From NCBI GenBank assembly GCA_958009085.1, contig OY253669.1, positions 1,674,001-1,738,000 on the forward strand: a stretch of 64,000 nt of DNA, given 5' to 3'. Positions 16,786 to 64,000 of this stretch are shown piece after piece. Position 1 is the stretch's first letter, and every line of letters begins with the position of its first letter. The notes below the pieces were generated by a model. The model ran no database searches and was not told the origin of the DNA. It worked only from the letters and a program-made list of their open reading frames with translations. The position numbers were made by a program, and so were the translations under genes. This stretch comes from Protoeuglena noctilucae. Taxonomy: Eukaryota.

Positions 16786-16985
16786 NNNNNNNNNNNNNNN
16801 NNNNNNNNNNNNNNNNNNNNNNNNNNNNNNNNNNNNNNNNNNNNNNNNNNNNNNNNNNNNNNNNNNNNNNNNNNNNNNNNNNNNNNNNNNNNNNNNNNNN
16901 NNNNNNNNNNNNNNNNNNNNNNNNNNNNNNNNNNNNNNNNNNNNNNNNNNNNNNNNNNNNNNNNNNNNNNNNNNNNNNNNNNNNN
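16786..16985. other. Assembly gap (200 N)
   Basis: Run of N. Confidence 1.
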
Positions 16986-19679
16986 CCCGTGCGGCGTCAG
17001 ACGACGTCAGTGCCGCTCGCACCTCCATGGCCTGCTGTTGCAGCGCCAGGTCCCGCGACGCCAGCGCCTGCGGAGAGACGAGCGCAGTCCAGCGTCTCAT
17101 GACACCCGCAGGGCTACTGATCATTCACCAGCCCGCCGCCCTCATCGCCCTCTGCATACAACCACCCCGCTCCCTCACCTGCGACAGCAGCGCCTCCCCC
17201 TCCGCCGAGAGCCCCCCCCCGCTCCTCGCCGCCAGCTTCCCCAGCGCCAGCACCGCCCGCTGCGTCTGCGCCGGCGGCAGGCGCACGCTGCCCGAGAGAC
17301 CGCACACGGCGTCAATCGCGTCCTCGACCGCCTCACGGTCCCCCTCGGCCCCAAACTCCCCCGCCGCCCACAGCGCGACGGCCTGCAGGGGCTCCGGGGT
17401 GTTCCCGCGGGACAGGTAGGGCAGGAGCGTGCGCAGGGCGAAGGCGGGGAGGCTCGAGTCCGTGGCGGCGTGGGTGGCCATCGCGGCGGTCAGGCCGTCC
17501 GCCAGCTGCGGCCCCGCGTCCGCGCCGCACGCGCAGATGAGGGACGCGATGGTGCGGATGTACCATTGCACCTGCGAGCGCAAGGGGAAGGGGGGCCAGT
17601 CAGCAATGCGTGCATAAAACACGACGGTCTGCCAACAGCACCTGTGCCCCGTCTCGCACGCACTACATCACGGCCCACACCCCATTGCATGGCACACAAT
17701 TCCCCATCAGCCAAGGCCCACATGCGCCCCACATGCGCCCAGCCCCTCACCCCTCCCGGAGCCAACGCCGCGAATTTGTCGCAGAGCGCCGCGAGCTTGG
17801 TCCCGAGCGCGGCGCGGACCTCCAGGTCGGCCCCTCCCCCCAGGAACTCGAGCATCTTATCAGCGATGACCTCCACGTTGCCCTCGTGCGTCATCCTTGC
17901 CAGGAGATCCAGGGTGGATCGTCTCAAAGTGGCGTCCTTGCTCTCCAGGCAGTCGATCACCGCCGCTTGGTGGGCCTCGGCGTGCTCGTGGCCCAGGGTG
18001 ACGAGGGACGACTGCGGGGGTGGGGGAGAGGTGGGGGTCTAAGTGGGGGTGGGGGTGAAGGTGGGTGTGAAGGTGGTCAGCGGTGGGGAGACTTGAGATG
18101 ACTGCGCAGCGCACTCGATTACACTCCTCCCCATCACACGTTCGTCTCACCAGGGCGTGGATGCCGGCGTATTTGAGGTTGGGGGGCGCGGACGGGCGCA
18201 GGAAGAAGCCCACGGTGCGCGTGCACTCCCCAAGCAGCTCCCGGCTGGGCGGGCTCAGGCGTGCAGCGGCACGCAGGCACTCGTAGGCCAGGGCGTGGGC
18301 GATGGTGTTGGAGCCCTGGCGGGCGCGGCGCAGGACGTCCAGAATGGCCAGCGAGGCGGACGCCGAGGCCTCCGGGCTGCCGGCGGACAGGCGCGCGAGG
18401 GCGCGCACGATCTGCGGGGGCGGGGCGAGTTATTGAAACATGAGCAGTGAGCAGTGAGCGGTGGGGAGCATGGCGAGGGACGGCCTTGCAAACGACCCGC
18501 CGAACGGCCCTGCTGTTAGCAGCCCTGACATCAGAGGCCCTGCTCCAACCAGCCTTGCCATCAGCTGCCCTGCTGCGAGGAGCAGCCCTGCCCCGAGCAG
18601 CCCTGCGCTTCCCGCTCGTCATGCATGCTCACCCGCAGTTGGATGAAGGGCGCCGGGGCCTTGTGGTACTCGTAACTCTTGGGGAGCCTGCCCTGGAGGA
18701 CCTGCCCGAGGATGTGCGCGAGGGGCCCGACCTGGGAGCGCAGGCTGGCCGGGTCCAGGCGCGCGGCGTCGTCGAGCGCGTTGAGGGCCGCGGCCATGAC
18801 GGCGGGGTCGCGGTCGAGCAGGGCCTGGCGGATGCGCGCGGACAGCTCCGGGAGGCGGTCGGGCGCGAGGACGACGGCGCGTTGCACGGCGAGGCATGCC
18901 TTGCGCCGCACGGGGTCGATGGGGTGGGGCAGGAGGGCCTCAATGTTGGGAAGCAGCGCCGGGGCCGTGTCGCGGGACATAAGCTTGCAGCAGGCGTCGA
19001 GCGCCGCGCAGACGACCACGTAGTTGTCCGACTTGAGGTCCCTCTGCATCGTGTTGGTCAGCATCAGGGCCAAGTCGTGATTGGGGCCCAGGAGCACCGA
19101 GGCCGCCAGGTATCCCACGCGCTTCAGCACGGGGTTGGTGCTCGCCGCCATCGTCACGGCCTGGATCTCCCCGAACGACGCGTCGTAGCCCAGCATGTCC
19201 AGGTAAATGAGACGCACCATGCTCTCCCGCTTGGCCTGCACGGTCAGTTAGCGGCAGGGGGCGGTCAGCGCGCCGCGCGCGGCCGCCGGAGGGCGGCGGA
19301 GCCAACCAAAGCACTTATGAAACGCGGGCGGCGGGGCCAGGGGGCGCGGGCGGCGGAGGCACGCGCGAGGCGCGGCGCATACGCGCCTGCGGGTCTGGGA
19401 TGGGCTCGGAGAGGAGCTTCTTGAGCGTCAGGCGCTCAGCCTCCATGATGCGGGTCTCCTCCGCCTGCAGATCACGACGAGCGACCGCTGAAGCGCGAGA
19501 CCCGCACGAATAGGCCCCGGCGCGCGGCCTCGCAGGCCCAGACCCGCGTGACAAACGCGAGCCCCGTGCACCGCGTGCAGGGCGCTTGTGGGCCCCACCT
19601 TCGACTTGCATTCTCCAATGGCCGCAATGAGTTCGTGGAACTCCTTGGTGAACTTGCCGCCCTTCCCCGTCGACGCCAT
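16986..19679 (-). CDS. AP4E1: AP-4 adaptor complex subunit epsilon, spliced, 3' part interrupted by the gap
   Basis: KEFHELIAAIGECKSK|AEETRIM...RLIYLDMLGYDASFGEIQAV...KRVGYLAASVLL...QRDLKSDNYVVVCAAL...RLPKSYEYHKAPAPFIQLR...NLKYAGIHAL...IDCLESKDATLRRSTLDLL. Confidence 0.92.
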
Positions 19680-20131
19680 CGTCCCTCCCCGCTCCCTCAG
19701 CCCAGCCTGGGCAGCGTCGGGGACCGGAGCGGCACGAGCTGGCACGGCAGAAACGAATCCTTTGCTGCGCGCTGAGATCCGTCACGCTGGACGCGCAGCG
19801 GACCGCAGGCAACCGGCGAGCGCGCGGGACACGGCCAGGAGGGCTCGACGCCGGTCCACCGGGGGCAAGGTCACGCCGGTTATCTCAAAGATGCCGCATG
19901 TCGCCGTCAGCCTTCGCCTTGACGAGGTCTCGAGCAAAACGTGCCGTCGTGCATTTCACTGGCAAGAGCCTAGAAATCCCCATTCATGCCGTAAATCCCT
20001 CTCAGCTGTTTAGGGCTCGACACACAACGGATCTCGAGGGTTCCCTACCCCGTTCTCTCTTCGCTCCTCATTGGCAAAAGAACAAACACAAGCCTCAGGT
20101 TGGGGGCCCACGCCCGCGACCCCCGCGCCCC

Positions 20132-21745
20132 ATGTCGTCCGTCCCCGACGTGGGAGCGGGCGTAGTGCTCCAGGGCACGTGCGGTTGGTCGGACGAGTCA
20201 ATCCTGCGCAGCCGGCGGTTCTATCCGTCGTCGGTCCGGACGTCTGAGGACCGCCTGTTCCACTACGCGAGGCACTTTCCGTGCGTGGAGGTCGACTCGT
20301 CTACGTACGCCATCCCCTCGCCAAAAACCTGCGCCTCCTGGGCCTCCCAGACGCCCAGGGGCTTCGTCTTCCACGTCAAAGCGTACGGCCCCTTCTGCTC
20401 CCGGTCCTGCGTCGTAGGCGCCCTTCCCCGGGCGGTGCGAGAGCGCGTGCTCGAGGAGGGTCTGGCCAGAGACGCCAAGGCCACCATTCCACTTCAGGAG
20501 GCGAGCAACCGACCAGGGCTGGGAGAGGCTGCGAGCACTCCGTCCCAGCAACGGATGTCAGCCACTCATGGTGTCGTCTCTTCTCCTTGCCCTCCAGCTT
20601 CCCGAGGGTGCGGAGATGGAGGTGTGGGAGGCGTTCAACCGATGCCTCGACCCCCTCATCGAGGCGAAGAAGATGGGAGTGAGTCCCTTGCGTCGCACGG
20701 CCGAACCGCTCAGCACGTTTCCGCACTCCGAGCACGTCTCTGCACACCAGGGTCATGCTTGAGCCCCACCGCGTCCACAGGTTTGCGTGTTTCAGTTCCA
20801 CCTCGGCTTCGTGCCCTCTGAAGAAACTCACGAATACCTGCGCCACCTGCGGTCCATGCTGCGCCCCGACGTCAGGCGAGTCGCCGTGACCCACGGCACG
20901 GGCACCGCGCTCGCGCTGAAGGGTGCATCAGCGATTGCATCAGCAGGGACGCTCCTGGCATTGTAAGAGCCAGCAGCCTGCATGGCCTTGTCGCGTCCAC
21001 TCACATACCTCAGCTGCTGCGCAGCATGGCAATGGAGTTCCGCGACCGTGCCTGGTTCGACACCCCGGCGCGGAGGGACTTGACGGTGGCGGCCCTGCGA
21101 GACCTGGACGCCTGTCTGGTGGCCGGGGACGACCTCGCGTCAGAGATGGGCGCCGGGGGCGGCGCCGGGCAGCTGCCGGTGGCTGAGGGGGTCGCCACGC
21201 CGCGTTTCTGGTACGTGCGCATCCACCGCCGGCGGGGGACGTGGGAGAGGCAGCTAGGGGCGGCGGAGGTGGAGGCGTGGGTGGCGCGGCTGGGGCGCGT
21301 GCAGGCGCAGGGCCTCCGGGGGCCAGTCTTCTTCATGTGGGGCACCGACTGGGAGGACGTCCCCATTCGGAACGCCTCGGTACTCGAGACAGCACTCCCC
21401 GCAGCGATGCGCTTCAACTGGCGGGCGCAGCTGCGGGAGAGGGAGGCTGCGCAGCCGGGCAGCCTCATGGCTATGCTTGCGGGGGGTAGGGGGAAGCGAT
21501 TGCGGGAAGAGGCGGCCGATAGGGATGTCCAGAAGCGTCAGGCGGGGGGAGGGGAGGGGTTCGACCGAGGGCGCGCCTCGTGTGCTGACGCGGGGGTGCC
21601 TGGCAGCGGCGCATTAGCCGAGGAACGAGGCGAGGCTGAAGCTCCCAGTGGGGTGGGTTGCAGTCCACCGGTAGCACCGCTCCCTCCAAGGCTCCCCAAG
21701 AAGGGCTCTTTGCTAAATTATTTCCCCCGCGTGGGGCCGTGCTGA
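20132..21745 (+). CDS. DUF72 (UPF0759/YecE-like) domain protein, 4 exons
   Basis: GTCGWSD...LFHYARHFPCVEVDSSTYAIP...W..QTPRGFVFHVKA...VFQFHLGF...AMEFRDRAWF...YVRIHRR. Confidence 0.9.
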
Positions 21746-38226: not shown

Positions 38227-38336
38227 TCTGAGGACCATTTCCTGGGTCAGAAAGAGACGTTGGCCTCACCAGCACCAGGGAAGAAGGCGTTGTCTTCAAA
38301 GGGCTAATTAGAGGCCTCAGAGGGCGGGTAGCAGCC

Positions 38337-40899
38337 GCGCGCTGCCTTTGGCTGTCGACACTAGGCACCTTGAACCACCGGCAGTGGCACTGCCCTAGGG
38401 TCTAGTGGACATCTAGCGCCAGGAACAGACCGCTACGTCAGGTGTCATGCAAGTGCTATGGTGGCTCCGGTGCCATGCTCTCTCGTCTGCTGGCTGTGCG
38501 TCAGGCAGCCAGCCTCCTGCCGCCGGCCAGGGCGTTGATCTGCCCAACGTTGCCCCGGCCCCCCAGCGCCTGCGGACAAACAGGGAGCCAGGCTCAGATG
38601 CGCAAGGCGCGCCATGAAGGGGCTGTCGGCGGCACGCTCGCGAGCCCCAGTCGCCTGATTGATGAGGTTGTTCCCGGACGCCCCGCCAGCGAGCGCGTTG
38701 ATCTGGCCGACCGCCCCGGAACCGGCCCCATTGTTGCCCACGGCCTGGGAGCCACGGCGTTGGAGATGGCGGGTCAGGTCACGGCGCCGCGGTGCCAGGA
38801 AGCCGAGCAGCCCTGCGCATGGCTCAGGGCGCACAGCAGCAGGCGGGCGGGCACTGGAGAGGGTGCCGAGTCGCTGCGACCGCACCTGGTTGATGAGGTT
38901 GTTGCCGCCGCCGGTGCCCGTGCCCGTCTTCTTGGGGTCGGTGCTGCCGGAGCCGCCACCCTGCTGTGCGTTGGTCTGGGCAACGGGTGCGCCGCTCGAC
39001 CCGCCAGAGCCGCTCCCGGAGCCGCTGCCCGACCCCACTCCCGCGCCGCGCACGACCTGCATTACGTGAGCGCGGTGCTGGCTGTCTTGTGACCCTGGCC
39101 CAGACGCCCGCGCGGTTGTCTGTGCCGGCACCCACACACGACGCGCTGGCTCAGCGTGGCACCTGGTTGATGAGGTTGTTGCCACCAGCCCCAGCGCCCG
39201 TCTTCTTGGGGTCGGTGGTGCCGGTCCCGCCACCCGCCAGCGCGTTGATCTGCCCCACGGCTCCCAGCCCAAACCCATTGCCCACGGCCTGCGAAACGAA
39301 GCTCTGGATCCCGCCTTCAGCATGCATGCCATGCACGGGGTCAGACAGGGGCAACTCCGTGGTCTCCACTGTGTGAAGCCACGGCACTCGCCCGCCTCGA
39401 CCCATGACATGGCATGCTGGCCGCGGTCGCATGTTGCTGCTGGGGGCGGCGACGCTGGCTCAGCGCGGCACCTGGTTGATGAGGTTGTTGCCACCAGCCC
39501 CGGCGCCCGTCTTCTTGGGGTCGGTGGTGCCGTTCCCGCCCGCCAGCGCGTTGATCTGCCCGATGGGTGCGCCGAACAGGCCGCCCACGACCTGCACCGC
39601 ACGAACGGCCAGCGGGGCCTCATGCAGCATGCGATGCCGCTGCCGGCGCCAGAGCTCATGCGCCGAGAGCAGCCTCGACGTACCTGGTTGATGAGGTTGT
39701 TGCCACCAGCACCATTTGGTGCCGGGGCCGGGGGCACCTTCGGAGTCGGAGAGCTCTTGGGCGTGGGCGAGCTCTTGGGCGTGGGCGAGCTCTTGGGCGT
39801 GGGCGAGCTCTTGGGCGTGGGCGAGCTCTTGGGCGTGGGACCCTGCGCCAGCCGCCGGCTCCTCACGGCCTGCGAGGGGCACGTTACATCACATCCCTGA
39901 GGATCCAGGCTCCCGGAGAGTAAGGGATGGTTGCTCCCGCAGTCGAGGTGTACAGCCCTGGGGGCTTTGTGCATCAGCCATGCATGGAAAGGTCGCAGGC
40001 ACAGCGCCGGGCCCCAGCAGCACCGGCATGCACGGTGCATCCCGCCGCAGCTGCTCCGCGTCACCTGCTCCCCGAGGTCGACCTCAATGTCCGGGAAGGC
40101 ACCGGAGACCGCCGATAGCTGCCGAGGCTGCAGGGCCTGCGGGGCATGACCACGGAAACTCGGGGTATGGATCCAGGCCAGGATGCGAGGCCAGCGGCTC
40201 ACCGCAGCTCCCTAGCCCGCTTGAAGTGTGCGTGGAGGGTGCCGGGCCTCGGCATGGGCATCGATGCACCGGCGGACCGCACAGAAGCCATACACTCACC
40301 TGATCATGCGGGAGGATGTTTGCTTGGGCTGCGGGCACGGGGGAGAGGGGAGGGCATGTCGATGGCAGAATGTGCTTTGCACACCTCGTGGAATGCGGGG
40401 CCGTGCTGGAGGACTCACCGGCCGCCCGCGATGCGCTGACCGCGAGCAGCAGCAGGGCTGCCACAGTGCAGATGGCCTTCTGCATGTCCGCGTCGCGACG
40501 TGGGATGCGGAGGGACCGTGTGTGCGGAAATGATGTCACCAGTGCACACTTAAGCTCATGGCAGCTATGACGTCACTGCACACGCAGCGGCAGCGCTGCC
40601 ATGTGGAGGTAGCATGGCGCAGCCAACCATGGCTCGCTGCAGCGACGGCAGGCCGCGCCGGGGCCGAGCTGCGGGTCAACGCATCGGGACGTTATCAAGA
40701 GGCGCGACGGGCACGGTGGCTCTCGCATGCCGGCGTGGGAGGAGTCGGACGAAGGTGCCGCTGGCGCCATCTCCCGGCAGTCTTCCGCGCCGCGCATGCG
40801 ACACAGAAACGGAGGTCGCCTTGGCGATCTGCTCGAGATGCTCAGTCGCTATGGTTGGCGGTGGCTCCGGGGGCCGCTTGGGCGGGCCGAGCCGTGCAC
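38337..40899. repeat. Left arm of a 2563-bp inverted duplication (partner 51862-54424)
   Basis: Reverse complement matches 51862-54424 (coordinate sum 92761); ORF translations are mirror images; about 3 mismatches seen. Confidence 0.95.
38501..40485 (-). CDS. Secreted QINALAG/NNLINQ-repeat protein, copy A (9 exons; inverted copy of C)
   Basis: Mirror of 52276-54260; signal peptide MQKAICTVAALLLLAVSASRAA. Confidence 0.8.
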
Positions 40900-41096
40900 T
40901 TGCTGGTCAGGTCGTGGCAGCAGGTCCAGCAGCAACGGGCCTTACGGGCGCAGTGATGGCATCACTGGTGGCTTAGCTATTATTAAGCCGTTAGGGCTGC
41001 GAGTACCGGGCTGAGCACCGCGCCTGCTCCATTGCCGGAGCCAGCGCTGCATTCAAACACTTCACTCGTCTGCGGCGCTGACAGCCATACAGAATC

Positions 41097-47464: not shown

Positions 47465-50400
47465 ATGGGAGCTCGTCGCCGCGGCGTCGCTGCGGCGGCG
47501 TTGATTATCGCCGCGGGCCTCTTCTCGCAGACTCTGGCCTGGGCGCCGTCCTGCCTCGACCATGCGGCCGGCCACAAGTGCCTGTACCAGGTGCAGAGAG
47601 TGCATGCAGCTTGCTTTGTGGCAGATGGCTGCGCGCGCGCTCCGTAAGCCACGGCGAGATTCGGGTCCGCATCCCAACACTGATGCCAAAGTTGGCAACA
47701 TTGCCGCAAACCAAACAATAATTACAACAATAATTCCGCTTTGCAGGCCGGGGGCATCGTGACGGATGTCCATGCGCTGGCGGGATCGACCTTGACCAGC
47801 CAGGCCATCGTCGGCCGGCGGCTGGCAGATGACAGAACCCCCAGCCCGCCTCCGCCGAGCCCTCCGGGACCGCCGGGCCCCACCGGTCCCTCTGGTCCCC
47901 CCGGTCCGCCTGGTCCGCCTGGTCCGACGAGCCCCCCGGGTCCGCCAGGCCCCACTGGTCCCTCCGGTCCCCCCGGTCCGTCGGGTCCGCCGAGCCCCCC
48001 GGGTCCGCCGGGACCCAGCGGTCCTGAAGGGCCCCCTGGTCCGTCTGGTCCGCCGAGCCCCCCGGGTCCGCCGGGACCCAGCGGTCCTGAAGGGCCCCCT
48101 GGTCCGTCTGGTCCGCCGAGCCCCCCAGGTCCACCGGGCCCCAGCGGTCCTCCCGGCCCCAGCGGCCCCTCCGGTCCTGAAGGCCCCCCAGGTCCGTCGG
48201 GTCCGCCGAGCCCCCCGGGTCCGCCGGGACCCAGCGGTCCTGAAGGGCCCCCTGGTCCGTCTGGTCCGCCGAGCCCCCCAGGTCCGCCGGGCCCCAGCGG
48301 TCCTCCTGGCCCCAGCGGGCCCTCCGGTCCCGAGGGCCCCCCTGGTCCGTCGGGTCCGCCGAGCCCCCCGGGTCCGCCGGGACCCAGCGGTCCTGAAGGG
48401 CCCCCTGGTCCGTCTGGTCCGCCGAGCCCCCCAGGTCCGCCGGGCCCCAGCGGTCCTGAAGGGCCCCCTGGTCCGTCTGGTCCGCCGAGCCCCCCAGGTC
48501 CGCCGGGCCCCAGCGGTCCTCCTGGCCCCAGCGGCCCCTCCGGTCCCGAGGGCCCCCCTGGTCCATCTGGTCCGCCGAGCCCCCCGGGTCCGCCGGGCCC
48601 CAGCGGTCCTCCCGGCCCCAGTGGGCCCTCCGGTCCCGAGGGCCCCCCTGGTCCATCGGGTCCGCCGAGCCCCCCGGGTCCTCCAGGCCCCAGCGGCCCG
48701 TCCGGTCCCCCTGGCCCCTCTGGTCCCTCCGGTCCCGAGGGCCCCCCTGGTCCATCTGGTCCGCCGAGCCCCCCGGGTCCTCCTGGCCCCAGCGGCCCGT
48801 CCGGTCCCCCTGGCCCCAGCGGTCCCTCTGGTCCTCCGGGCCCCAGCGGCCCGTCTGGCCCCGAGGGCCCCCCTGGTCCGTCGGGTCCGCCAAGCCCCCC
48901 AGGTCCGCCGGGCCCCAGTGGCCCTTCTGGCCCCCCGGGCCCTACTGGCCCTTCTGGTCCTCCAGGCCCTGGTGGCCCCTCCGGTCCCGGAGGGCCCCCT
49001 GGTCCGTCTGGTCCGCCGAGCCCCCCTGGCCCGTCGGGTCCCTCCGGCCCACCGAGCCCGCCGGGTCCGCCTGGTCCGTCGGGTCCTTCCGGGCCCCCTG
49101 GTCCGCCTGGTTCCCCGAGCCCCCCAGGTCCCCCGGGTCCACCTGGCCCGGCCGGTCCCCCGAGCCCTCCGGGTCCGCCGGGTCCTGGCGGCCCCTCCGG
49201 TCCCCCGGGCCCCAGTGGTCCCTCCGGTCCCCCGGGTCCCAGCGGCCCCTCCGGTCCTCCCGGCCCCGGCGGCCCCACGGGCCCGTCGGGTCCGCCGAGC
49301 CCCCCGGGTCCCCCGGGCCCTCCTGGTCCGTCTGGTCCGCCTAGCCCCCCGGGCCCTCCCGGCCCCCCTGGCCCGTCGGGTCCTTCTGGTCCCCCGAGCC
49401 CGCCGGGTCCCCCGGGCCCCTCCGGTCCCGAAGGGCCCCCTGGTCCGTCGGGTCCTCCGAGCCCCCCAGGTCCCCCGGGTCCACCTGGCCCGGCCGGCCC
49501 CCCGAGCCCCCCGGGTCCGCCGGGTCCTGGCGGCCCCTCCGGTCCCCCGGGCCCCAGTGGTCCCTCCGGTTCCCCGGGTCCCAGCGGTCCCTCCGGTCCT
49601 CCTGGCCCTGGCGGCCCCACGGGCCCGTCGGGTCCGCCGAGCCCCCCCGGCCCTCCAGGCCCCACGGGCCCCACGGGCCCTACCGGTCCTCCGGGCCCCA
49701 CTGGTCCGTCGAGCCCTCCGGGTCCTCCGGGCCCCACGGGTCCGACGGGCCCCACAGGTCCCTCCGGCCCACCGAGTCCCCCCGGCCCCTCCGGTCCCCC
49801 GGGTCCCAACGGTCCTCCGGGCCCGTCCGGTCCCAACGGCCCGCCCGGTCCGTCGGGCCCGACTGGCCCCAACGGTCCCCCTGGCCCCACGGGCCCCACG
49901 GGCCCGACGAGTCCCCCGGGTCCCACGGGCCCCCCCGGCCCCACTGGTCCGTCTGGTCCGACCGGGCCCTCTGGGCCTAACGGTCCCCCGGGTCCCTCTG
50001 GTCCCAACGGCCCCCCAGGTCCCAACGGGCCCTCGGGTCCCTCGGGCCCACCCGGCCCCAACGGTCCCAACGGTCCCAACGGTCCCCCCGGCCCCACGGG
50101 CCCCTCGGGTCCTACGGGCCCCAGCGGTCCGTCGGGTCCCTCGGGTCCCAACGGCCCTCCGGGTCCCTCGGGTCCCAACGGCCCCGCCGGCCCCCCCGGC
50201 CCCACGGGTCCGACGGGCCCCGCGAGCCCCCCTGGTCCTCCGGGTCCCCCGGGTCCCCCTGGCCCTCCCGGTCCGACCCCTCCGCCCCCTCCGCCGACCC
50301 CGACTCCCAAGACCCCCCCGGGCCCCAAGAGCCCCCCCAAGAACCCGCCCGCCCCTGCCCCTGGCGGCAACAACCTCATCAACCAGGTACGGATGCGGAG

Positions 50401-51640
50401 GCTCTGGATGTCGCCGAGCTTCATCGCGCCTTGACTGCCGCGGTGCACCTGTGCTGACACACCGCACGCTGCCGACGCAGGCTGTGGGTGGCGGCGGCGC
50501 TGGCGGCGCTGCTGTCGGTCAGATCAACGCGCTGGCGGGTGGCGGGACCGGCACCACCGACCCCAAGAAGACGGGCGCCGGGGCTGGCGGCAACAACCCC
50601 ATCAACCAGGTGAGGGTGCAGGGCGCGCCGCTGTATTTGCACCTGGCAGCCTGGCTGGCTCGCGGCCCTGTCAGAGGCACGCGGCATCTTCTCGCGTTGC
50701 TCTCAGGCCGTGGGAGCGGGATCGTCTGGCTCTGGCACGGGCTCCGGCATCGTCGCGCAGATCAACGCGCTGACGGGTGGCGGGGCCGGTGGCGGCAACA
50801 ACCTGATCAACCAGGTGCGGTGACGTCTACAGGGGGCCTGCTGGGTACAGGGGGCCTGCTGGGCAAAGGATGTGCTGCAGCTGTGCATGCGTGGCGCGCT
50901 GTGCGACTTGATAATGCGCTGTGCCGGAGTCTGCGCCGCTGCGATCGTCAATTGGAGGCCCCGGCTGTCCTCGCCCATGCAGGCCGTGCCGGGCTCGGGC
51001 TCGGGCACTGGCTCGGGCACTGGCTCTGGCTCTGGCTCTGGCTCGGGCACTGGCTCGGGCACTGGCTCTGGCTCTGGCTCTGGATCTGGCTCGGGCTCGG
51101 GCTCGGGCTCGGGCTCTGGCTCTGGCTCCGGCTCTGGCGGCGCTCCTGTCGGTCAGATCAACGCGCTGGCGGGCGGCTCCGGCACCACCGACCCCAAGAA
51201 GACGGGCGCCGGGGCTGGCGGCAACAACCTCATCAACCAGGTGCGCGCGCAAGGCGTGGCGGTGCGTGGATGCTGGATGCTGGATGCTGCCGCTGGCCGC
51301 GTGCCTTGCTGCAGAGCGCTGGTAGCGTGGCTAGAGGTGTCGAGGAGCATCGACCGCGTCGCTATGCTTGTGTGGTGCAGGCCGTGGGCGGCTCGGGCGG
51401 CGGAGCTGTCGGGCAGATCAACGCGCTGGCCGGCGGCGGCGGCGGCGGCAACAAGCTCATCAACCAGGTGCGTGCGGCGTGACGGGTGCTGACGGGCCGC
51501 GATGCTGTCCGTTGCGGCCCCGTGGTGGTGACCCGTCGCGTGCCAAGCGCCCGCAGGCTTTGGGCGGTGGCTTCGGGCTGGGTGCCATCGGCCAGATCAA
51601 CGCGCTGGCAGGCTTGGGTGGCCGGCGGCTGGCCGCGTAG
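47465..51640 (+). CDS. Secreted collagen-like QINALAG/NNLINQ-repeat protein, copy B (7 exons: 47465-47590, 47747-50386, 50481-50609, 50707-50814, 50983-51240, 51381-51467, 51557-51640)
   Basis: Signal peptide [30 protein letters not shown] site; (Gly-Pro-Y)n domain; phase-0 module exons with GT-AG boundaries; ends GGRRLAA*. Confidence 0.85.
47867..50278 (+). repeat. 9-bp-periodic coding repeat: 268 triplets of (G/S)-P-Y
   Basis: 2412 nt; [18 protein letters not shown] triplets with periodic SPP. Confidence 0.95.
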
Positions 51641-51861
51641 CAAGCTGGTCTCCTCTAGAGTGCAACTAATCTTCTAGCTAGCACTTGATATTAGAGAGTG
51701 CACTGTCCTCGACTTAGAGAGTCTTGGAATGAGTTAGTACACTAGCCACTGGCTCGCCTTCTGCCTCGCCCTTTCTACTGCTGCTCGTCACTACGACTGT
51801 TAACGCATGAGACGCGCGCTAGCCTGTGCAAGGGCGACGTGACGCATGTGGGCCCCCGCAG

Positions 51862-54424
51862 GTGCACGGCTCGGCCCGCCCAGGCGGCCCCCGGAGCCAC
51901 CGCCAACCATAGCGACTGAGCATCTCGAGCAGATCGCCAAGGCGACCTCCGTTTCTGTGTCGCATGCGCGGCGCGGAAGACTGCCGGGAGATGGCGCCAG
52001 CGGCACCTTCGTCCGACTCCTCCCACGCCGGCATGCGAGAGCCACCGTGCCCGTCGCGCCTCTTGATAACGTCCCGATGCGTTGACCCGCAGCTCGGCCC
52101 CGGCGCGGCCTGCCGTCGCTGCAGCGAGCCATGGTTGGCTGCGCCATGCTACCTCCACATGGCAGCGCTGCCGCTGCGTGTGCAGTGACGTCATAGCTGC
52201 CATGAGCTTAAGTGTGCACTGGTGACATCATTTCCGCACACACGGTCCCTCCGCATCCCACGTCGCGACGCGGACATGCAGAAGGCCATCTGCACTGTGG
52301 CAGCCCTGCTGCTGCTCGCGGTCAGCGCATCGCGGGCGGCCGGTGAGTCCTCCAGCACGGCCCCGCATTCCACGAGGTGTGCAAAGCACATTCTGCCATC
52401 GACATGCCCTCCCCTCTCCCCCGTGCCCGCAGCCCAAGCAAACATCCTCCCGCATGATCAGGTGAGTGTATGGCTTCTGTGCGGTCCGCCGGTGCATCGA
52501 TGCCCATGCCGAGGCCCGGCACCCTCCACGCACACTTCAAGCGGGCTAGGGAGCTGCGGTGAGCCGCTGGCCTCGCATCCTGGCCTGGATCCATACCCCG
52601 AGTTTCCGTGGTCATGCCCCGCAGGCCCTGCAGCCTCGGCAGCTATCGGCGGTCTCCGGTGCCTTCCCGGACATTGAGGTCGACCTCGGGGAGCAGGTGA
52701 CGCGGAGCAGCTGCGGCGGGATGCACCGTGCATGCCGGTGCTGCTGGGGCCCGGCGCTGTGCCTGCGACCTTTCCATGCATGGCTGATGCACAAAGCCCC
52801 CAGGGCTGTACACCTCGACTGCGGGAGCAACCATCCCTTACTCTCCGGGAGCCTGGATCCTCAGGGATGTGATGTAACGTGCCCCTCGCAGGCCGTGAGG
52901 AGCCGGCGGCTGGCGCAGGGTCCCACGCCCAAGAGCTCGCCCACGCCCAAGAGCTCGCCCACGCCCAAGAGCTCGCCCACGCCCAAGAGCTCGCCCACGC
53001 CCAAGAGCTCTCCGACTCCGAAGGTGCCCCCGGCCCCGGCACCAAATGGTGCTGGTGGCAACAACCTCATCAACCAGGTACGTCGAGGCTGCTCTCGGCG
53101 CATGAGCTCTGGCGCCGGCAGCGGCATCGCATGCTGCATGAGGCCCCGCTGGCCGTTCGTGCGGTGCAGGTCGTGGGCGGCCTGTTCGGCGCACCCATCG
53201 GGCAGATCAACGCGCTGGCGGGCGGGAACGGCACCACCGACCCCAAGAAGACGGGCGCCGGGGCTGGTGGCAACAACCTCATCAACCAGGTGCCGCGCTG
53301 AGCCAGCGTCGCCGCCCCCAGCAGCAACATGCGACCGCGGCCAGCATGCCATGTCATGGGTCGAGGCGGGCGAGTGCCGTGGCTTCACACAGTGGAGACC
53401 ACGGAGTTGCCCCTGTCTGACCCCGTGCATGGCATGCATGCTGAAGGCGGGATCCAGAGCTTCGTTTCGCAGGCCGTGGGCAATGGGTTTGGGCTGGGAG
53501 CCGTGGGGCAGATCAACGCGCTGGCGGGTGGCGGGACCGGCACCACCGACCCCAAGAAGACGGGCGCTGGGGCTGGTGGCAACAACCTCATCAACCAGGT
53601 GCCACGCTGAGCCAGCGCGTCGTGTGTGGGTGCCGGCACAGACAACCGCGCGGGCGTCTGGGCCAGGGTCACAAGACAGCCAGCACCGCGCTCACGTAAT
53701 GCAGGTCGTGCGCGGCGCGGGAGTGGGGTCGGGCAGCGGCTCCGGGAGCGGCTCTGGCGGGTCGAGCGGCGCACCCGTTGCCCAGACCAACGCACAGCAG
53801 GGTGGCGGCTCCGGCAGCACCGACCCCAAGAAGACGGGCACGGGCACCGGCGGCGGCAACAACCTCATCAACCAGGTGCGGTCGCAGCGACTCGGCACCC
53901 TCTCCAGTGCCCGCCCGCCTGCTGCTGTGCGCCCTGAGCCATGCGCAGGGCTGCTCGGCTTCTTGGCACCGCGGCGCCGTGACCTGACCCGCCATCTCCA
54001 ACGCCGTGGCTCCCAGGCCGTGGGCAACAATGGGGCCGGTTCCGGGGCGGTCGGCCAGATCAACGCGCTCGCTGGCGGGGCGTCCGGGAACAACCTCATC
54101 AATCAGGCGACTGGGGCTCGCGAGCGTGCCGCCGACAGCCCCTTCATGGCGCGCCTTGCGCATCTGAGCCTGGTTCCCTGTTTGTCCGCAGGCGCTGGGG
54201 GGCCGGGGCAACGTTGGGCAGATCAACGCCCTGGCCGGCGGCAGGAGGCTGGCTGCCTGACGCACAGCCAGCAGACGAGAGAGCATGGCACCGGAGCCAC
54301 CATAGCACTTGCATGACACCTGACGTAGCGGTCTGTTCCTGGCGCTAGATGTCCACTAGACCCTAGGGCAGTGCCACTGCCGGTGGTTCAAGGTGCCTAG
54401 TGTCGACAGCCAAAGGCAGCGCGC
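51862..54424. repeat. Right arm of the 2563-bp inverted duplication (partner 38337-40899)
   Basis: See left arm. Confidence 0.95.
52276..54260 (+). CDS. Secreted QINALAG/NNLINQ-repeat protein, copy C (9 exons) with (PTPKSS)5
   Basis: MQKAICTVAALLLLAVSASRAA|AQANILPHDQ|ALQPRQ...GEQ|AVRSRRLAQG(PTPKSS)5..NNLINQ| four module exons |[22 protein letters not shown]. Confidence 0.8.
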
Positions 54425-54973
54425 TACTGCGCTTTCCGACACCCCCCGGGCACCGCAACCTGCTACTTGTCCGCCGCCCTTGATTCCCATCCCGGGAAAG
54501 CATCGCGGACTCCTGCTGCTTTCGCTCACAGCACGTAACCGGGCTCTGGCATTTCGTCCCGCCCTCTTCCTCCTCTCCACCGTCTGGTCCGTCGGGGCGT
54601 CCATCGACGGGCCCTCCCGCTCCGCCTTCGATCTCAAGTTCCGCCAGCGGCGGAGTTCCTGGACGAGGCCTCCACGGACATCCCCGGCCTGCCCCACCGA
54701 AAAGCTTTCGCGAGCGGGGCTTTCCTTACTGCCATAGGGTTGCGATGGATCCTCCGTGAGCTCGTCGGCGCCCCGCTGTGGCAGGCGCAAGCCGCAGCGG
54801 AGGCTGCAGTGGGACCCATGCCAGCCCACTGCACGCCGTGCCTGCGCTCCCATGCAGGCGACGTCACCGTGGGAGTGACGTCATGCGATTTTGGGGCTTA
54901 AAAGCCAGGTGAGGGGCCTCTCCCAGGCATAGTTCGGGCCGTCCCCGGCTGTGAACAGAGCCTTTTGCTTTGC

Positions 54974-56022
54974 ATGGGGGCTCGTCGCCGCGGCGTCGCG
55001 ACGGCGGCGGTGATCGTCGCAGCGGGTCTCTTCTCGCAGGCCCTGGCCTGGGCGCCGTCCTGCCTCGACTACGCGGCTGGCCTGTACGACGGAGGGTGCG
55101 GGTATCTCGGCTCTGTGGACCCAAGTGTCCTGTATGCCGACTGCCCGTCTCTGCGTGGGCCGCTTGGCGCCTGCGGGTACACGGGCGGCACTAACGCTGG
55201 ATCCGGGGGCACTGGCACGGGCAGCGGCGGCAGCGGCCAGACGAATGCGCAGTCGGGCTCTCCTTCGCCATCGCCCACTTCCGCCCCTACGCCTACCTCT
55301 GCGCCCCTGGCACCTCCTGTGGCGCAGATCAATGCTCTCGCAGGCTCTGGCGCCGGCCTTGGCGGCAACAACCTGATTAATCAGGTGAGGGAGTCTGCAC
55401 ATGGCCGGCGCGCCCCCCGCACAAGCGTAGCACGTGTTGGGCCCTGCCGCATGCAGAGCACCTGGGCTTCCCCTCTCGCCTCCTCAGGCAGTGACTGGGT
55501 CCGGCAGCGGCGGCAGCGGGTCGGGCGTCGTCGCGCAGATCAATGCGCTGGCGGGCGGCTCCGGCACCACCGACCCCAAGAAGACGGGCGCCGGGGCTGG
55601 CGGCAACAACCTCATCAACCAGGTGCGCGCGCAAGGCGTGGCGGTGCGTGGATGCTGGATGCTGGATGCTGCCGCTGGCCGCGTGCCTTGCTGCAGAGCG
55701 CTGGTAGCGTGGCTAGAGGTGTCGAGGAGCATCGACCGCGTCGCTATGCTTGTGTGGTGCAGGCCGTGGGCGGCTCGGGCGGCGGAGCTGTCGGGCAGAT
55801 CAACGCGCTGGCCGGCGGCGGCGGCGGCGGCAACAAGCTCATCAACCAGGTGCGTGCGGCGTGACGGGTGCTGACGGGCCGCGATGCTGTCCGTTGCGGC
55901 CCCGTGGTGGTGACCCGTCGCGTGCCAAGCGCCCGCAGGCTTTGGGCGGTGGCTTCGGGCTGGGTGCCATCGGCCAGATCAACGCGCTGGCAGGCTTGGG
56001 TGGCCGGCGGCTGGCGGCCTAG
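54974..56022 (+). CDS. Secreted QINALAG/NNLINQ-repeat protein, copy D (4 exons: 54974-55384, 55488-55622, 55763-55849, 55939-56022)
   Basis: Signal peptide paralogous to B; small four-Cys segment; SP/TP linker; module exons; ends GGRRLAA*. Confidence 0.8.
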
Positions 56023-61017: not shown

Positions 61018-64000
61018 ATGTGGATCGCCAAGCGTCCTATTTCTGCGTCAGCAACGCCCCCGCCGCCCGCCCGACACGATCGCACGCCGCTTTTTGCCGA
61101 TGCAGGGCGGCGCATCTACGAGGGTCACCGGCGCGCCATCCGCGCGCCCGGCCCTCCGCTCGGCCGCGGAGCAGCTCCGCACGCGCCAATAACACCGTCT
61201 ACCCTCGGCGATGTGGATCCTCGGCCCCAAGTGCCACTCGGTGGCTGGACAGGACTCGCGGGCCTCCCAAAAGGTGCGGCGGGCGCGGCTCCTCGCTGGG
61301 CGCCGGAGCGCTCGGCAAACTGTTTGAGTCTTGAGCCCGCACGCCCGCGCACCGGATCAGCGGCTCGACGGCAGGGCGTGCTTCCCTGGACGCGCCCCAC
61401 CCTCGGTTGCTGGCCCGCAGGCCCTCTCAGCGACGTCCTTCCGCGCCACGACGTCAGCCGTCGGATCGACGTCTCGGCCCCAGTCGCCCCCCGCGGTGCG
61501 GTGCCCCGCGGTCCCGGATGCCATGCGCAGCCCTGACCCCGGCCCGGGTCTCCACGGTTCCCGCTGGCCGGCCCGCGGCGGCGCGCACCCGGCGCCCGTG
61601 GCCCCGACGAGCACGCTGCTCTCGGAGATCGATCGGAACCTGGAGGAGCGGCGCGCGGCAGGTGGGCTGAGGGCAGTGGTGCTGATTTGCCCGCCGCACT
61701 CAGCGCGCACGTTGGGCCCGCCGGCCGCGCGCTTGGCCCACCTGCTTCTTTTGCTCCTCCGCAGATCACCCCAGCACTCTGCTCCAGGCCCTGGACATGA
61801 CGTCCCTGTCCAGCGGCAGCTCCCACCTGTCCGACCCCCTGGCGCGTCACGACAGGTGAGGGCCATGCCGCGACGGGCCGGGGTCACGCGCCGCTCCCTT
61901 CGACTCCGAACAACTGCCGCACGCGTGACCAGGTCCACCTCCGCCCTCCCTGCACCCGGCGTCCCACCTCCCCGGCCCCCACCGCACCCCACCCACCCCA
62001 CCCCCACGACCAACCATTCCTCCTCCCCGCCCCCAGTGACACGGACGTTCTCTTCGACGATCACGGCTTCCTCCTCGACCAGGCCGGGCCCCGCAGCCCC
62101 GCGTCACTGCGGGCGTCGGCATCCCCCCGCGCCGCGCCCCACGCCCGCCCCGCCACGGGCCCCCCGGGCCCCTCGCCCCGCCACTCCGCGCACTTCGCGG
62201 ACGCAGCCCCGGCGCACCCGACCGCCGCCGCCGTGCGCGTGGCTTCCCCGCCCTCGCCCCAGCCCCTGCCCCCGTTCTCGCCCCCGCTCCCCCTGGTCGT
62301 CGCACCCGCGAGCCCCGCCACCGCCCCCCGCGCCTCCCCCGCCGCCGCCCCGGCCCCCGAGTCCCCCCCTACCCTGGTGGTCTTTTCGGGCGCGACGGCC
62401 TTCAACACGGTCGCGGCGTCGCTGCGCGGCCTCACCACGCGCGTCACGCACGTCCTTCCGGTGTCGGACGACGGCGGCTCGACGGCCGAGATCGTGCGCG
62501 TGCTGGGGGGCCCGGCCGTGGGGGACATCCGCTCGCGCTGCCTGCGCCTGTCGGACCGCAGCGACGACGAGGGCCGCGCGGTGGCTGCCCTCTTGGGCCA
62601 CCGCCTCCCCGGGACGTCCGCGGCTGAGGCGAAAGCGCAGTGGTACGCGATCGTGGAAGGGGACCACGAGCTTTGGCGCGGGGTGTCAGAGCCCTACAAG
62701 CACACCATCCGCGCCTTCCTGGTCCACTTCCAGGCCAACATCATGCGGCACTCGTCCGAGCGGTTCGACTTCCGCAACGGAAGCGTCGGAAACTTCTTCT
62801 TCGCGGGGGCGCGCGTCTTCTTCCGATCACTCGAGGTGGGGATGCAGTGTTCGGGGTGGGCGGGGGCTTGTGCAGCCGCGGTGCCCTGGTGTTTGCGTTC
62901 AGTGCCACCCCCACTGCCACTCTCGCCCACACCCACATCCGCACCCTCACCCTCACTGCCACCCTCACCCTCGCTGCCACCCTCACCCTCACCCTCACTG
63001 CCACCCTCACCCTCACCCTCACTGCCACCCTCACCCTCGCTGCCACCCTCACCCACACCCTCACTGCCACCCTCACCCTCACCCTCACTGCCACCCTCAC
63101 CCTCGCTGCCACCCTCACCCACACCCTCACTGCCACCCTCACTGCCACCCTCACCCTCACCCCAGGCCGCCATTTTCCTTTTCTCCCGCGTCGCCCGCCT
63201 CCCTGAGGGCTCCCTGGTGGCCCCGGCCATCCTCACCGAAGAGCGCATCACGCTGGGGGCGGAGCTGGCTGACGGCACCTTCATACGGGGGCAGAACGCC
63301 ATCTCGCACCCGCCCCGGGGCCACGGCGGCGTCGAGGCCGTGAGGAAGGACCTGGAGGACCCCCCCATGCCTGCCCGTGTGCGACGCGTCTTTTACCTGG
63401 TGAGGCCCGGCGCCATGGGGGTACCCTCCGTGACACTGAGGGTGGTTAAAAAGGGCACAGGCCAAGGGCACGAGGAACGAGGGGGCTGATGAGGAAACGA
63501 GATATACTACCACCGACATCGCTGCGCATGCCCTCGTTGATCCGCGATGGGTCGTTCCGCCGATGCGCTCCCCCTCGCGCGCCCTCGCCCTCCGCCCTTG
63601 CCACCCCAAGCGCTCCCTGACCCGCCACCCCTCCTTTTCCCCCCGCAGTCCTCCGAGGGCACCCGCGGCGAGCACGAGGTCTTCCCCCGCGCCAACCCCC
63701 GCGTTCTGCAGCAATTGGAGTCGGCCGAGCTCATCGTCTACGGCATGGGGTCGCTCTACACCTCCGTGTGCCCCAGCCTGGTGCTGCGAGGCGTGGGGGA
63801 GGCCGTGGCAGCGCGGGCGTGCCCCAAGGTGCTCGTGCTCAACGGATCGCACGACAGGGAAACTACTTACATAGAGGGAGGCACAGAGGGAGCGGATGGG
63901 GAGGGCGGGCGCGCGTTCATGAGGGACATGGCGGCGGGCGAGGGGGGGACGGGCGCAGGGGCCGAGTTGGTGCGGGGGGCGGGCGGCGAGGGGCCCGGGC
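61018..64000 (+). CDS. UPF0052/CofD-YvcK family protein (MEE18/YNL011C-like); start uncertain, runs off the right edge
   Basis: LVVFSGATAFN...VLPVSDDGGSTAEIVRVLGGPAVGDIRSRCLRL...FDFRNGSVGNFFFAGAR...IRGQNAISHP...IVYGMGSLYTSVCPSLVLRGVGEAV...KVLVLNGSHDRET. Confidence 0.9.
62900..63163. repeat. Intronic minisatellite built from CCCTCA/CTGCCA hexamers
   Basis: Variable 12-24-bp units of ctgccaccctca(ccctca)n. Confidence 0.95.

Follow-up and report, generated by a model that had tools for sequence, protein, structure and literature searches.

Organisation of gene A

We analysed a stretch of 64,000 nt of the Protoeuglena noctilucae assembly GCA_958009085.1 (contig OY253669.1, positions 1,674,001 to 1,738,000 of the forward strand), hereafter called the window, and all coordinates given below are positions within it. 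The window carries four members of one gene family, which we named genes A, B, C and D. This study centres on gene A (47465-51640, + strand), which comprises 1143 codons in our model, distributed over seven exons separated by phase-0 introns, and in which a single exon encodes a very long collagen-like array of Gly-Pro-Y triplets. Its features are the following, a slash marking the border between exon and intron:

47465..47590 (+), exon 1: ATG and 42 codons, ending CAG/GT; read from the sequence
47591..47746 (+), intron 1: GT..tttgcAG, 156 nt, phase 0; predicted
47747..47866 (+), start of exon 2: a degenerate module (..DVHALAG..TSQ), then the PSPPPPSPP flank
47867..50278 (+), collagen-like array: 268 triplets, with Gly (241) or Ser (27), then Pro (266), then Y
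50279..50386 (+), end of exon 2: Pro-rich linker and the first GGNNLINQ half-module; donor CAG/GT
50387..50480 (+), intron 2: 94 nt, GT..AG; absent from a 927-nt contig of RNA run X9
50481..50609 (+), exon 3: a single complete module; found in RNA contigs
50610..50706 (+), intron 3: 97 nt, GT..AG; absent from a 215-nt contig of RNA run X9
50707..50814 (+), exon 4: a module that lacks the TDPKKTG insert; found in an RNA contig
50815..50982 (+), intron 4: 168 nt; an X9 contig has a loose end at 50815 that continues with the start of exon 5
50983..51240 (+), exon 5: a (GS/GT)n run, then a full module
51381..51467 (+), exon 6: a short module; in paralogue C, the corresponding exon is 99% identical
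51557..51640 (+), exon 7: the last half-module and the stop codon (51638-51640)

Exon 2 (47747-50386, 2640 nt) carries the whole array. Upstream of it, exon 1 encodes a basic n-region followed by a hydrophobic core and a cleavage-like site (TLA/W), then a short part with two Cys, and paralogue C has a promoter and an exon 1 that match the segment 47241-47573 with 91.6% identity. Intron 1 was placed between these two exons because translation continued past exon 1 runs into a stop codon and because the frame of exon 2 offers no ATG before the array. An earlier note on this DNA, made from the letters alone, had described a secreted protein with its array in one exon; the signal peptide that exon 1 is predicted to encode supports this description. 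Further downstream, the Gly-Ser/Gly-Thr run of exon 5 is encoded by a microsatellite, (GGC TCN/ACT)n, with some 24 copies (50992-51138).

Transcription of gene A

Public sequencing runs were aligned to positions 50200-50990, which reach from the 3′ end of the array to the start of exon 5. In the marine metatranscriptome run X9, contigs remove two GT..AG introns of the + strand and place the first bases of exon 5 directly behind exon 4. The 927-nt contig of this run joins exon 3 to exon 2, in support of the donor at 50386/50387, and reaches at least 640 nt into the array. As spliced contigs cannot derive from contaminating DNA, the array is transcribed in its Gly-Pro-Y frame. Gene A is a real spliced gene, transcribed on the + strand, and the earlier note, whose collagen-like reading stood or fell with transcription of this strand, is borne out on this point by the GT..AG introns spliced in the RNA contigs. 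Two further RNA runs (X10 and X11) gave short pieces only, with no splice joints.

The array reads as Gly-Pro-x on the minus strand as well, in an open frame of 933 codons (47725-50523). For this reason, the coding strand had to be established by separate evidence, and an automatic gene caller could pick the wrong one. Given the splicing of GT..AG introns on the + strand, we rejected the minus-strand frame. We also noted two joints in the DNA run X4 (50388 to 50520 and 50388 to 50757, with sides of 25-27 nt), which look like cross-matches between paralogous modules and not like deletions.

Composition and repeat structure of the array

Translated on the + strand, the array (47867-50278) is a stop-free stretch of 804 residues lying inside one open frame of 916 codons (47684-50434). 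The first position of its 268 triplets is occupied by Gly (241) or Ser (27) and the second, hereafter X, by Pro (266) or Ser (2). The third position, Y, is more varied, with 128 Pro, 82 Ser, 25 Thr, 12 Glu, 11 Asn, 6 Gly and 4 Ala. Lys, Arg and Tyr are absent, as is any aromatic or aliphatic residue. The Pfam Collagen family (PF01391) matches the array in six stretches with an E-value of 2.2e-95 and 312.8 bits, for a cut-off of 27.2. The region also stands out by its base composition, the GC fraction being 0.815 between 48 and 50 kb vs about 0.68 in the surroundings.

The interruptions of the Gly pattern are strikingly uniform. Ser alone replaces Gly, at about 10% of the Gly positions; all 27 non-Gly triplets are SPP, they are all in register, and every one of them is bracketed by GPP. 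Their Ser codons are AGC (25) or AGT (2). Counted in triplets, successive SPP are spaced by 7, 7, 7, 10, 7, 10, 7, 7, 10, 10, 11, 14, 14, 4, 7, 5, 15, 5, 6, 7, 5, 15, 8, 7, 15 and 35, which defines units of 7, 10, 14 and 15 triplets, each led by SPP, and leaves a longest stretch of uninterrupted Gly triplets of 34-35. Tandem Repeats Finder detects periods of 9, 153, 216 and 342 nt at the array, the periods of 153-342 at 79-91%. Finally, the residues at Y drift along the array: from the first to the last quarter, Glu is found 7, 4, 1 and 0 times, Thr 3, 1, 4 and 17 times, Asn 0, 0, 0 and 11 times and Ser 20, 28, 19 and 15 times.

Altogether, these counts agree with what the earlier note had described, namely 268 Gly-Pro-Y triplets within a single exon, an X that is mostly Pro, a Y drawn from P/S/T/E/N/G/A, no Lys or Arg, SPP replacing GPP in register with units of 63 and 90 bp (7 and 10 triplets), and a Y that is E/S-rich at the 5′ end and T/N-rich at the 3′ end. 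The proline-rich flanks that it had mentioned are likewise present, PSPPPPSPP upstream (47840-47866) and a second flank that begins at 50279.

Collagen helices of 7/2 and 10/3 symmetry count 7 and 10 units, the same numbers as the triplets in two of the SPP spacings. However, the 10-triplet unit corresponds to the 7-triplet unit with GPPGPSGPS added, so that this agreement may reflect the history of duplications and not a design.

The array in the assembly and in independent sequencing runs

A repeat that is so rich in GC (0.815), with a basic period of 9, might have been expanded or mis-joined from a shorter one during assembly, in which case the array or its length would be an artefact. Moreover, no read or contig was seen to span its 2.4 kb, and the scaffold has a gap of 200 N (16786-16985). 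This gap is the only run of N in the window and it is distant from the array. When sampled words of the segment 47300-51700 were looked up, 13 of the 24 runs listed contained this segment or part of it. The shares of words found amount to 0.84-0.88 in the organism's own runs, 0.43-0.85 in marine metagenome runs from an independent study and 0.20-0.41 in four marine metatranscriptome runs; shares of 0.75-0.88 are reached by runs of both the organism and the independent study. The runs that contain the gene A stretch are labelled marine.

Contigs also enter the array from its 3′ side. A 920-nt DNA contig from the independent marine metagenome extends about 570 nt into it, with zero mismatch in the aligned part, and the 927-nt RNA contig, which extends further (at least 640 nt), is equally free of mismatches where aligned. 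In addition, the copies of the repeat are not identical: exact internal repeats are at most 114 nt long, every 151-mer is unique, and the 2382 positions yield 2032 distinct 31-mers, of which 1850 are single-copy. The gradient of composition along the array is not expected from a collapse or expansion error, and the + frame remains open through its 916 codons. Because of the independent runs, the contigs that enter the array, the non-identical copies, the gradient and the location of the N gap elsewhere, we consider an assembly artefact very unlikely.

Constraint among the repeat copies

The non-identical copies make it possible to ask which codon positions vary. Between the ten 7-triplet units, the pairwise differences are 73 synonymous to 9 non-synonymous at Gly codons and 119 to 9 at the Pro codons of position X, vs 68 to 88 at Y codons. 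Between the four 10-triplet units, 33 differences are synonymous and none is non-synonymous. The same pattern is seen by columns in the nine 7-triplet units led by SPP: at Gly codons, 0 of 14 columns are polymorphic at codon positions 1-2 and 3 of 7 at position 3, and at the Pro(X) codons, 1 of 14 and 6 of 7, respectively. As two thirds of the single-base changes in GGN/CCN codons alter the residue, the excess of synonymous differences argues that selection maintains Gly (or Ser) and Pro in the array, and that Y is unconstrained.

These counts bear on the possibility that the array is a recent, neutral, microsatellite-like expansion in a spacer that is indifferent to its sequence, its collagen look being a by-product of the amplification of GGN-CCN-NCN. 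Indeed, the higher-order units are young tandem duplicates (periods of 153-342 at 79-91%), and the spacers of the paralogues vary freely. Yet differences at Gly and Pro codons that are mostly synonymous (73:9, 119:9 and 33:0, among copies that are related and not independent) are unlike neutral decay, and we regard a purely neutral origin of the pattern as improbable. As for the two types of triplet, SPP and GPP lie a single AGC/GGC transition apart and the order in which they arose cannot be told.

A family of paralogues with orphan C-terminal modules

The three other members of the family are found on both sides of gene A:

52276..54260 (+), paralogue B: signal peptide, small exons, ..RRLAQG-(PTPKSS)5 spacer, four modules, ..GRRLAA
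54974..56022 (+), paralogue C: promoter and signal peptide as in gene A, a head with four Cys, a short SPSPSPTSAPTPTSAPLAPP spacer, modules
38501..40485 (-), paralogue D: inverted copy of B, 2573 bp at 99.8%

All follow one plan, with a signal peptide, a short head, ..RRLA.., a Pro-rich spacer, three to five Gly/Asn/Gln-rich modules and a C-terminal ..GRRLAA that is common to genes A, B, C and D. Genes A and C share in particular 335 bp upstream (91.6%) and their last 494 bp (99%). The modules are encoded one per phase-0 exon, with a consensus that ends in GGNNLINQ, and their exons start with cag/G[CT]N and end with CAG/gt, with one gc donor. This donor terminates a module exon of gene B (CAG/GC at 54106/54107) and likely belongs to a GC-AG intron, the other introns of the family being GT-AG.

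In genes B and C, a short Pro-rich spacer, either (PTPKSS)5 or an SP/TP/AP stretch, occupies the position of the array between the same flanks, and a ..Q-A-[VI]-x-x-RRLA.. motif precedes the spacer both in gene A and in paralogue B (at 52892). That the array is placed exactly where B and C carry short Pro-rich spacers is the best evidence for its growth in place from a repeat of the type found in hydroxyproline-rich glycoproteins (HRGPs), an origin that the earlier note had suggested and that the paralogues now back. The spacer of gene A would have expanded through the tandem duplication of units of 7 to 15 triplets until it reached 268 triplets.

The ..G/S-RRLA.. sites lie at 47747-47836 and 52892-52921, and the C-terminal ..GRRLAA at 51614-51637, 54237-54257 and 55996-56019; the G/S-RRLA motif might be a dibasic processing site or a sorting signal. 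Genes D and B are the two arms of an inverted duplication of 2573 bp (38331-40903 on the minus strand and 51858-54430 on the + strand, 99.8%), and between these arms lie a BAG-like gene, a Cluap1/IFT38-like gene and gene A itself. The duplication may be a recent inverted one, but it may also correspond to an invertible segment or have been introduced by the assembly.

The modules themselves have no relatives in the collections that we searched. With the exon 3 module as query against proteins, the two matches were both open reading frame (ORF) calls of its own locus family. A module profile gave five matches among 1.84 billion representative proteins, three of which were ORF calls of the family's own loci; the two others, a bacterial repeat protein and a coiled-coil protein with IAQLNALxGG, are unrelated. 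The same profile confirmed none of 37 candidate stretches in metagenome contigs of the Joint Genome Institute and none of 72 candidates in viral contigs, and it found no match in the PDB at E-values up to 10. Pfam searches of the head and module exons returned sub-threshold noise only, and a structure atlas searched with the head and first module of paralogue C offered no usable look-alike. The non-collagen parts of gene A thus belong to an orphan, lineage-specific family, without relatives in the protein, Pfam and PDB searches.

Relationship to known collagens and to hydroxyproline-rich glycoproteins

Collagen repeats are familiar features of bacterial, viral, fungal and protist proteins. With exon 2 as query, 4630 proteins with collagen repeats were matched, among them animal fibrillar collagens as well as bacterial and metagenomic proteins. 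This protein database search gave neither an orthologue of gene A nor the organism's own protein. Among the 120 matches listed, identity over the aligned part does not exceed 51%, and the repeat alone is shared, the accessory domains being other ones. In these 120 best matches, the fraction of triplets with Pro at X is at most 0.73 (median 0.35) and that with Pro at Y at most 0.17, vs 0.99 and 0.48 in the array, which is therefore a compositional outlier even among the proteins that share most words with it. The non-collagenous domains shared by animal collagens (COLFI/NC1, VWA, TSPN and C1q) were not found either, Pfam giving PF01391 only. The array looks like a home-grown collagen-like rod and not like a borrowed animal collagen.

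The closest parallels are with non-animal collagen-like proteins. Bacterial Scl1/Scl2, BclA, the Legionella Lcl and the collagens of giant viruses have, like the array, long Gly-X-Y stretches matching PF01391, and BclA is found together with animal collagens among the PDB sequence matches of an array segment. These non-animal proteins combine a secreted surface rod with non-collagen ends, as predicted for gene A, and gene A may, like them, manage without cross-links of the animal type. Gene A differs from them by its composition (99% Pro at X, 48% Pro at Y), by the regular Ser at 10% of its Gly positions, by having no V-domain, C1q or COLFI according to Pfam, and by being a spliced eukaryotic gene.

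Such proteins have also been annotated in green algae. Annotated collagen genes are reported in the genomes of Ulva compressa (4) and Ulva mutabilis (28) (PMC9266709; repeated in a review, PMC10762512), and PF01391 is listed among the domains found in microalgal proteomes (PMC12664985). The premise of the earlier note that green algae lack Gly-X-Y proteins was thus too strong, at least at the level of the Ulva annotations (PMC9266709; PMC10762512). Like the proposed host of gene A, Ulva is a marine green alga. Its collagen genes are reported in these sources at annotation level, and neither the GC fraction of the window (about 0.68) nor the protein database, in which the proteome of the organism did not turn up, gives a link to Ulva.

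The second family of parallels is that of HRGPs. Extensins, Chlamydomonas GP1 with its PPSPX repeats and the agglutinin shafts share with gene A a signal peptide, Ser-Pro-Pro or poly-Pro motifs and a low-complexity rod, and the gene A family shares with them an evolution by short modular repeats, the spacers of the paralogues being of SP/TP/PK type. A strict Gly at every third residue, in contrast, is not a feature of HRGPs. The repeated Ser-Pro(3-5) of extensins is represented in gene A by one SPPPP in the N-terminal flank, the recurring motif being SPP followed by Gly, and no Tyr cross-link motif of extensins (YXY, VYK) is possible, as neither the array nor its flanks contain Tyr. By analogy with HRGPs, modification by a plant-type prolyl 4-hydroxylase (P4H) would be expected for gene A (PMC11252719).

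Cnidarian minicollagens, as they are described, have a core of 14-16 Gly-X-Y triplets between polyproline stretches, with Cys-rich domains at both ends (PMC2289959). Gene A resembles this description by its polyproline-flanked Gly-X-Y core and by Cys near the N-terminus, but it has 268 triplets, two Cys in exon 1 and none in the C-terminal part, and its Gly/Asn-rich modules are unrelated. This likeness implies no homology. In the literature that we searched, we found neither an array of the Gly-Pro-Y/SPP type nor the module family described.

Genomic context

The frames in the neighbourhood of gene A match Adaptin_N, GUN4, Cluap1/IFT38, BAG, DUF72, CofD and, weakly, TORTIFOLIA1. The adaptin exon (AP-4 epsilon-like) has relatives at 38-51% identity only. 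These neighbours point to a photosynthetic eukaryote with cilia genes, and the presence nearby of GUN4, Cluap1/IFT38 and the weak TORTIFOLIA1 match makes a green-algal host plausible. The CofD-like match (2-phospho-L-lactate transferase, 61801-63486, + strand) and the DUF72 match (19652-21742, + strand) lie in this eukaryotic context.

This context is also relevant to a possible foreign origin. Giant viruses, virophages, polinton-like viruses and bacteria are described as frequent carriers of collagen-repeat genes, and the best database matches of exon 2 are bacterial, metagenomic and animal collagens; the collagen-like part might accordingly be the product of a horizontal transfer, with a giant virus, polinton-like element, bacterium or animal as donor. 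Several observations speak against such a transfer, which we judge highly improbable. The matches share with gene A the repeat alone, with at most 51% identity among the 120 listed and with differing accessory domains, and the Pro fractions of the array at X and Y (0.99 and 0.48) lie outside those of the 120 best matches. Furthermore, the array is embedded in a spliced gene of host type whose flanks are common to paralogues without the array, the neighbours are cellular genes, and none of the 72 candidate modules in viral contigs was confirmed. A viral or mobile element context is thus not what we found: two introns of gene A are spliced in RNA, the loose end of a contig supports a third, and the surroundings are cellular.

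Triple helix or single polyproline-II chain

Taking together the observed sequence pattern, the exon structure 3′ of the array, the splicing on the + strand, the architecture of the paralogues and the conservation of Gly and Pro, we propose that gene A encodes a secreted fibrous protein of the surface or matrix, in which a spacer has grown in place into a Gly-Pro-Y rod. We give this reading a probability of about 0.7. Most likely, the array would serve as a rigid spacer rod that keeps the C-terminal modules, shared by the family, at a distance. With the rise of 0.286 nm per residue of the collagen helix, the rod would measure about 230 nm, and about 250 nm as a polyproline-II helix. The protein would be secreted, located at the cell surface, hydroxylated on its prolines and glycosylated; its chains may also trimerise.

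We see about even odds for a genuine triple helix of the collagen type, formed by three chains. Several features would favour it. Gly-Pro-Pro/Hyp is the triplet that most stabilises the collagen helix, Ser is one of the replacements of Gly that model peptides tolerate best, and galactosylated Thr at Y stabilises the cuticle collagen of Riftia. A P4H1 of the plant lineage is reported to hydroxylate the second Pro of Pro-Pro-Gly (PMC11252719). If a triple helix is formed, the in-register SPP would constitute regular, locally loosened sites, clamped by GPP and probably O-glycosylated. We modelled three copies of the first 90 residues of the array (47867-48136, with four SPP). The trimer model scored 0.56 vs 0.00 for the best control, with a predicted local distance difference test (pLDDT) of at least 91, at least 97% of contacts in agreement between runs, and contacts that cover residues 1-90 of all chains. 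To the model, then, the segment, including its SPP, looks like a triple-helix former, and the result says nothing beyond that.

An alternative is that the array forms a single-chain rod of HRGP type, with hydroxylated and heavily O-arabinosylated or O-galactosylated prolines, extended as polyproline II without any triple helix, as in the wall proteins of Chlamydomonas and Volvox and in agglutinin shafts. Gly would then be merely a tolerated small residue. This is a real possibility, to which we give somewhat less than an even chance. The flanks of the array and the spacers of the paralogues display the classic SP/TP/PPPP motifs, SPP occurs 27 times in the array, neither Lys nor Arg is available for collagen-type cross-links or charge pairs, and Pfam gave no known trimerisation domain. 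Green-algal coverings are, moreover, described as HRGP-based in a review (PMC10762512). However, a polyproline-II rod needs no Gly at every third residue, and the array keeps codon positions 1-2 of Gly/Ser and Pro fixed while position 3 varies. Ser is the sole substitute of Gly and is always found between GPP triplets, and the trimer model passes its controls, though weakly.

A number of points weigh against the secreted, possibly triple-helical, rod that we prefer. Concerning the gene itself, intron 1, and hence the signal peptide, is predicted from the sequence, and no read or contig seen spans the full 2.4 kb of the array, so that its assembled length is provisional. RNA run X11 carries an unspliced contig over intron 2 (50370-50549), which may represent pre-mRNA or DNA carry-over, and the contigs cannot yield an expression level. 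As mentioned, the constraint counts compare related paralogous copies of a repeat and not independent events. Concerning the helix, Ser at Gly positions, here 10% of them, weakens the collagen helix. Glycosylation of contiguous hydroxyprolines by the plant-type machinery could keep the chains single, and no recognised trimerisation domain was found by Pfam in the head and modules, although the modules could still act in trimerisation or nucleation. Finally, the mark reached by the trimer model, which is attained by 21 of 30 proteins solved as one-chain pairs and by 0 of 23 solved as single chains, was calibrated with two copies and not three, and 43 solved collagen sequences match the modelled segment, so that the pass may reflect solved collagens already known to the model.

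A more ambitious version of our proposal would hold that a long triple helix arose independently in a Pro-rich spacer in a photosynthetic protist, that selection keeps Gly-Pro-Y and sets Ser in place of Gly at intervals of 7 or 10 triplets, so that loosened sites open to glycosylation are aligned on one side of the 230-nm rod, and that the modules constitute a new domain for the registration or anchoring of collagen. As a whole, this version is in our opinion unlikely.

Significance of gene A

Non-animal collagen-like proteins and algal Pro-rich rods are already known as kinds of proteins. What is unusual in gene A is the near-pure Gly-Pro-Y composition, the regular sites at which Ser takes the place of Gly, and the orphan modules. 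Should the array prove to be a polyproline-II rod only, gene A would add one more low-complexity wall protein to those known. Under either reading of the rod, the orphan family of C-terminal modules needs explaining. If, on the other hand, the triple helix is true, the stability and the interruptions of the collagen helix could be studied on the array as an extreme case of a natural Gly-Pro-Y sequence, which contains neither Lys nor Arg and in which Ser replaces Gly at regular sites, and the array would be of use for collagen-like materials made in plants or algae. It would also represent a clean invention of the collagen architecture from an HRGP-type spacer, datable because the sister genes still carry the short spacer, and as such it would bear on the origin of fibrous matrix proteins.

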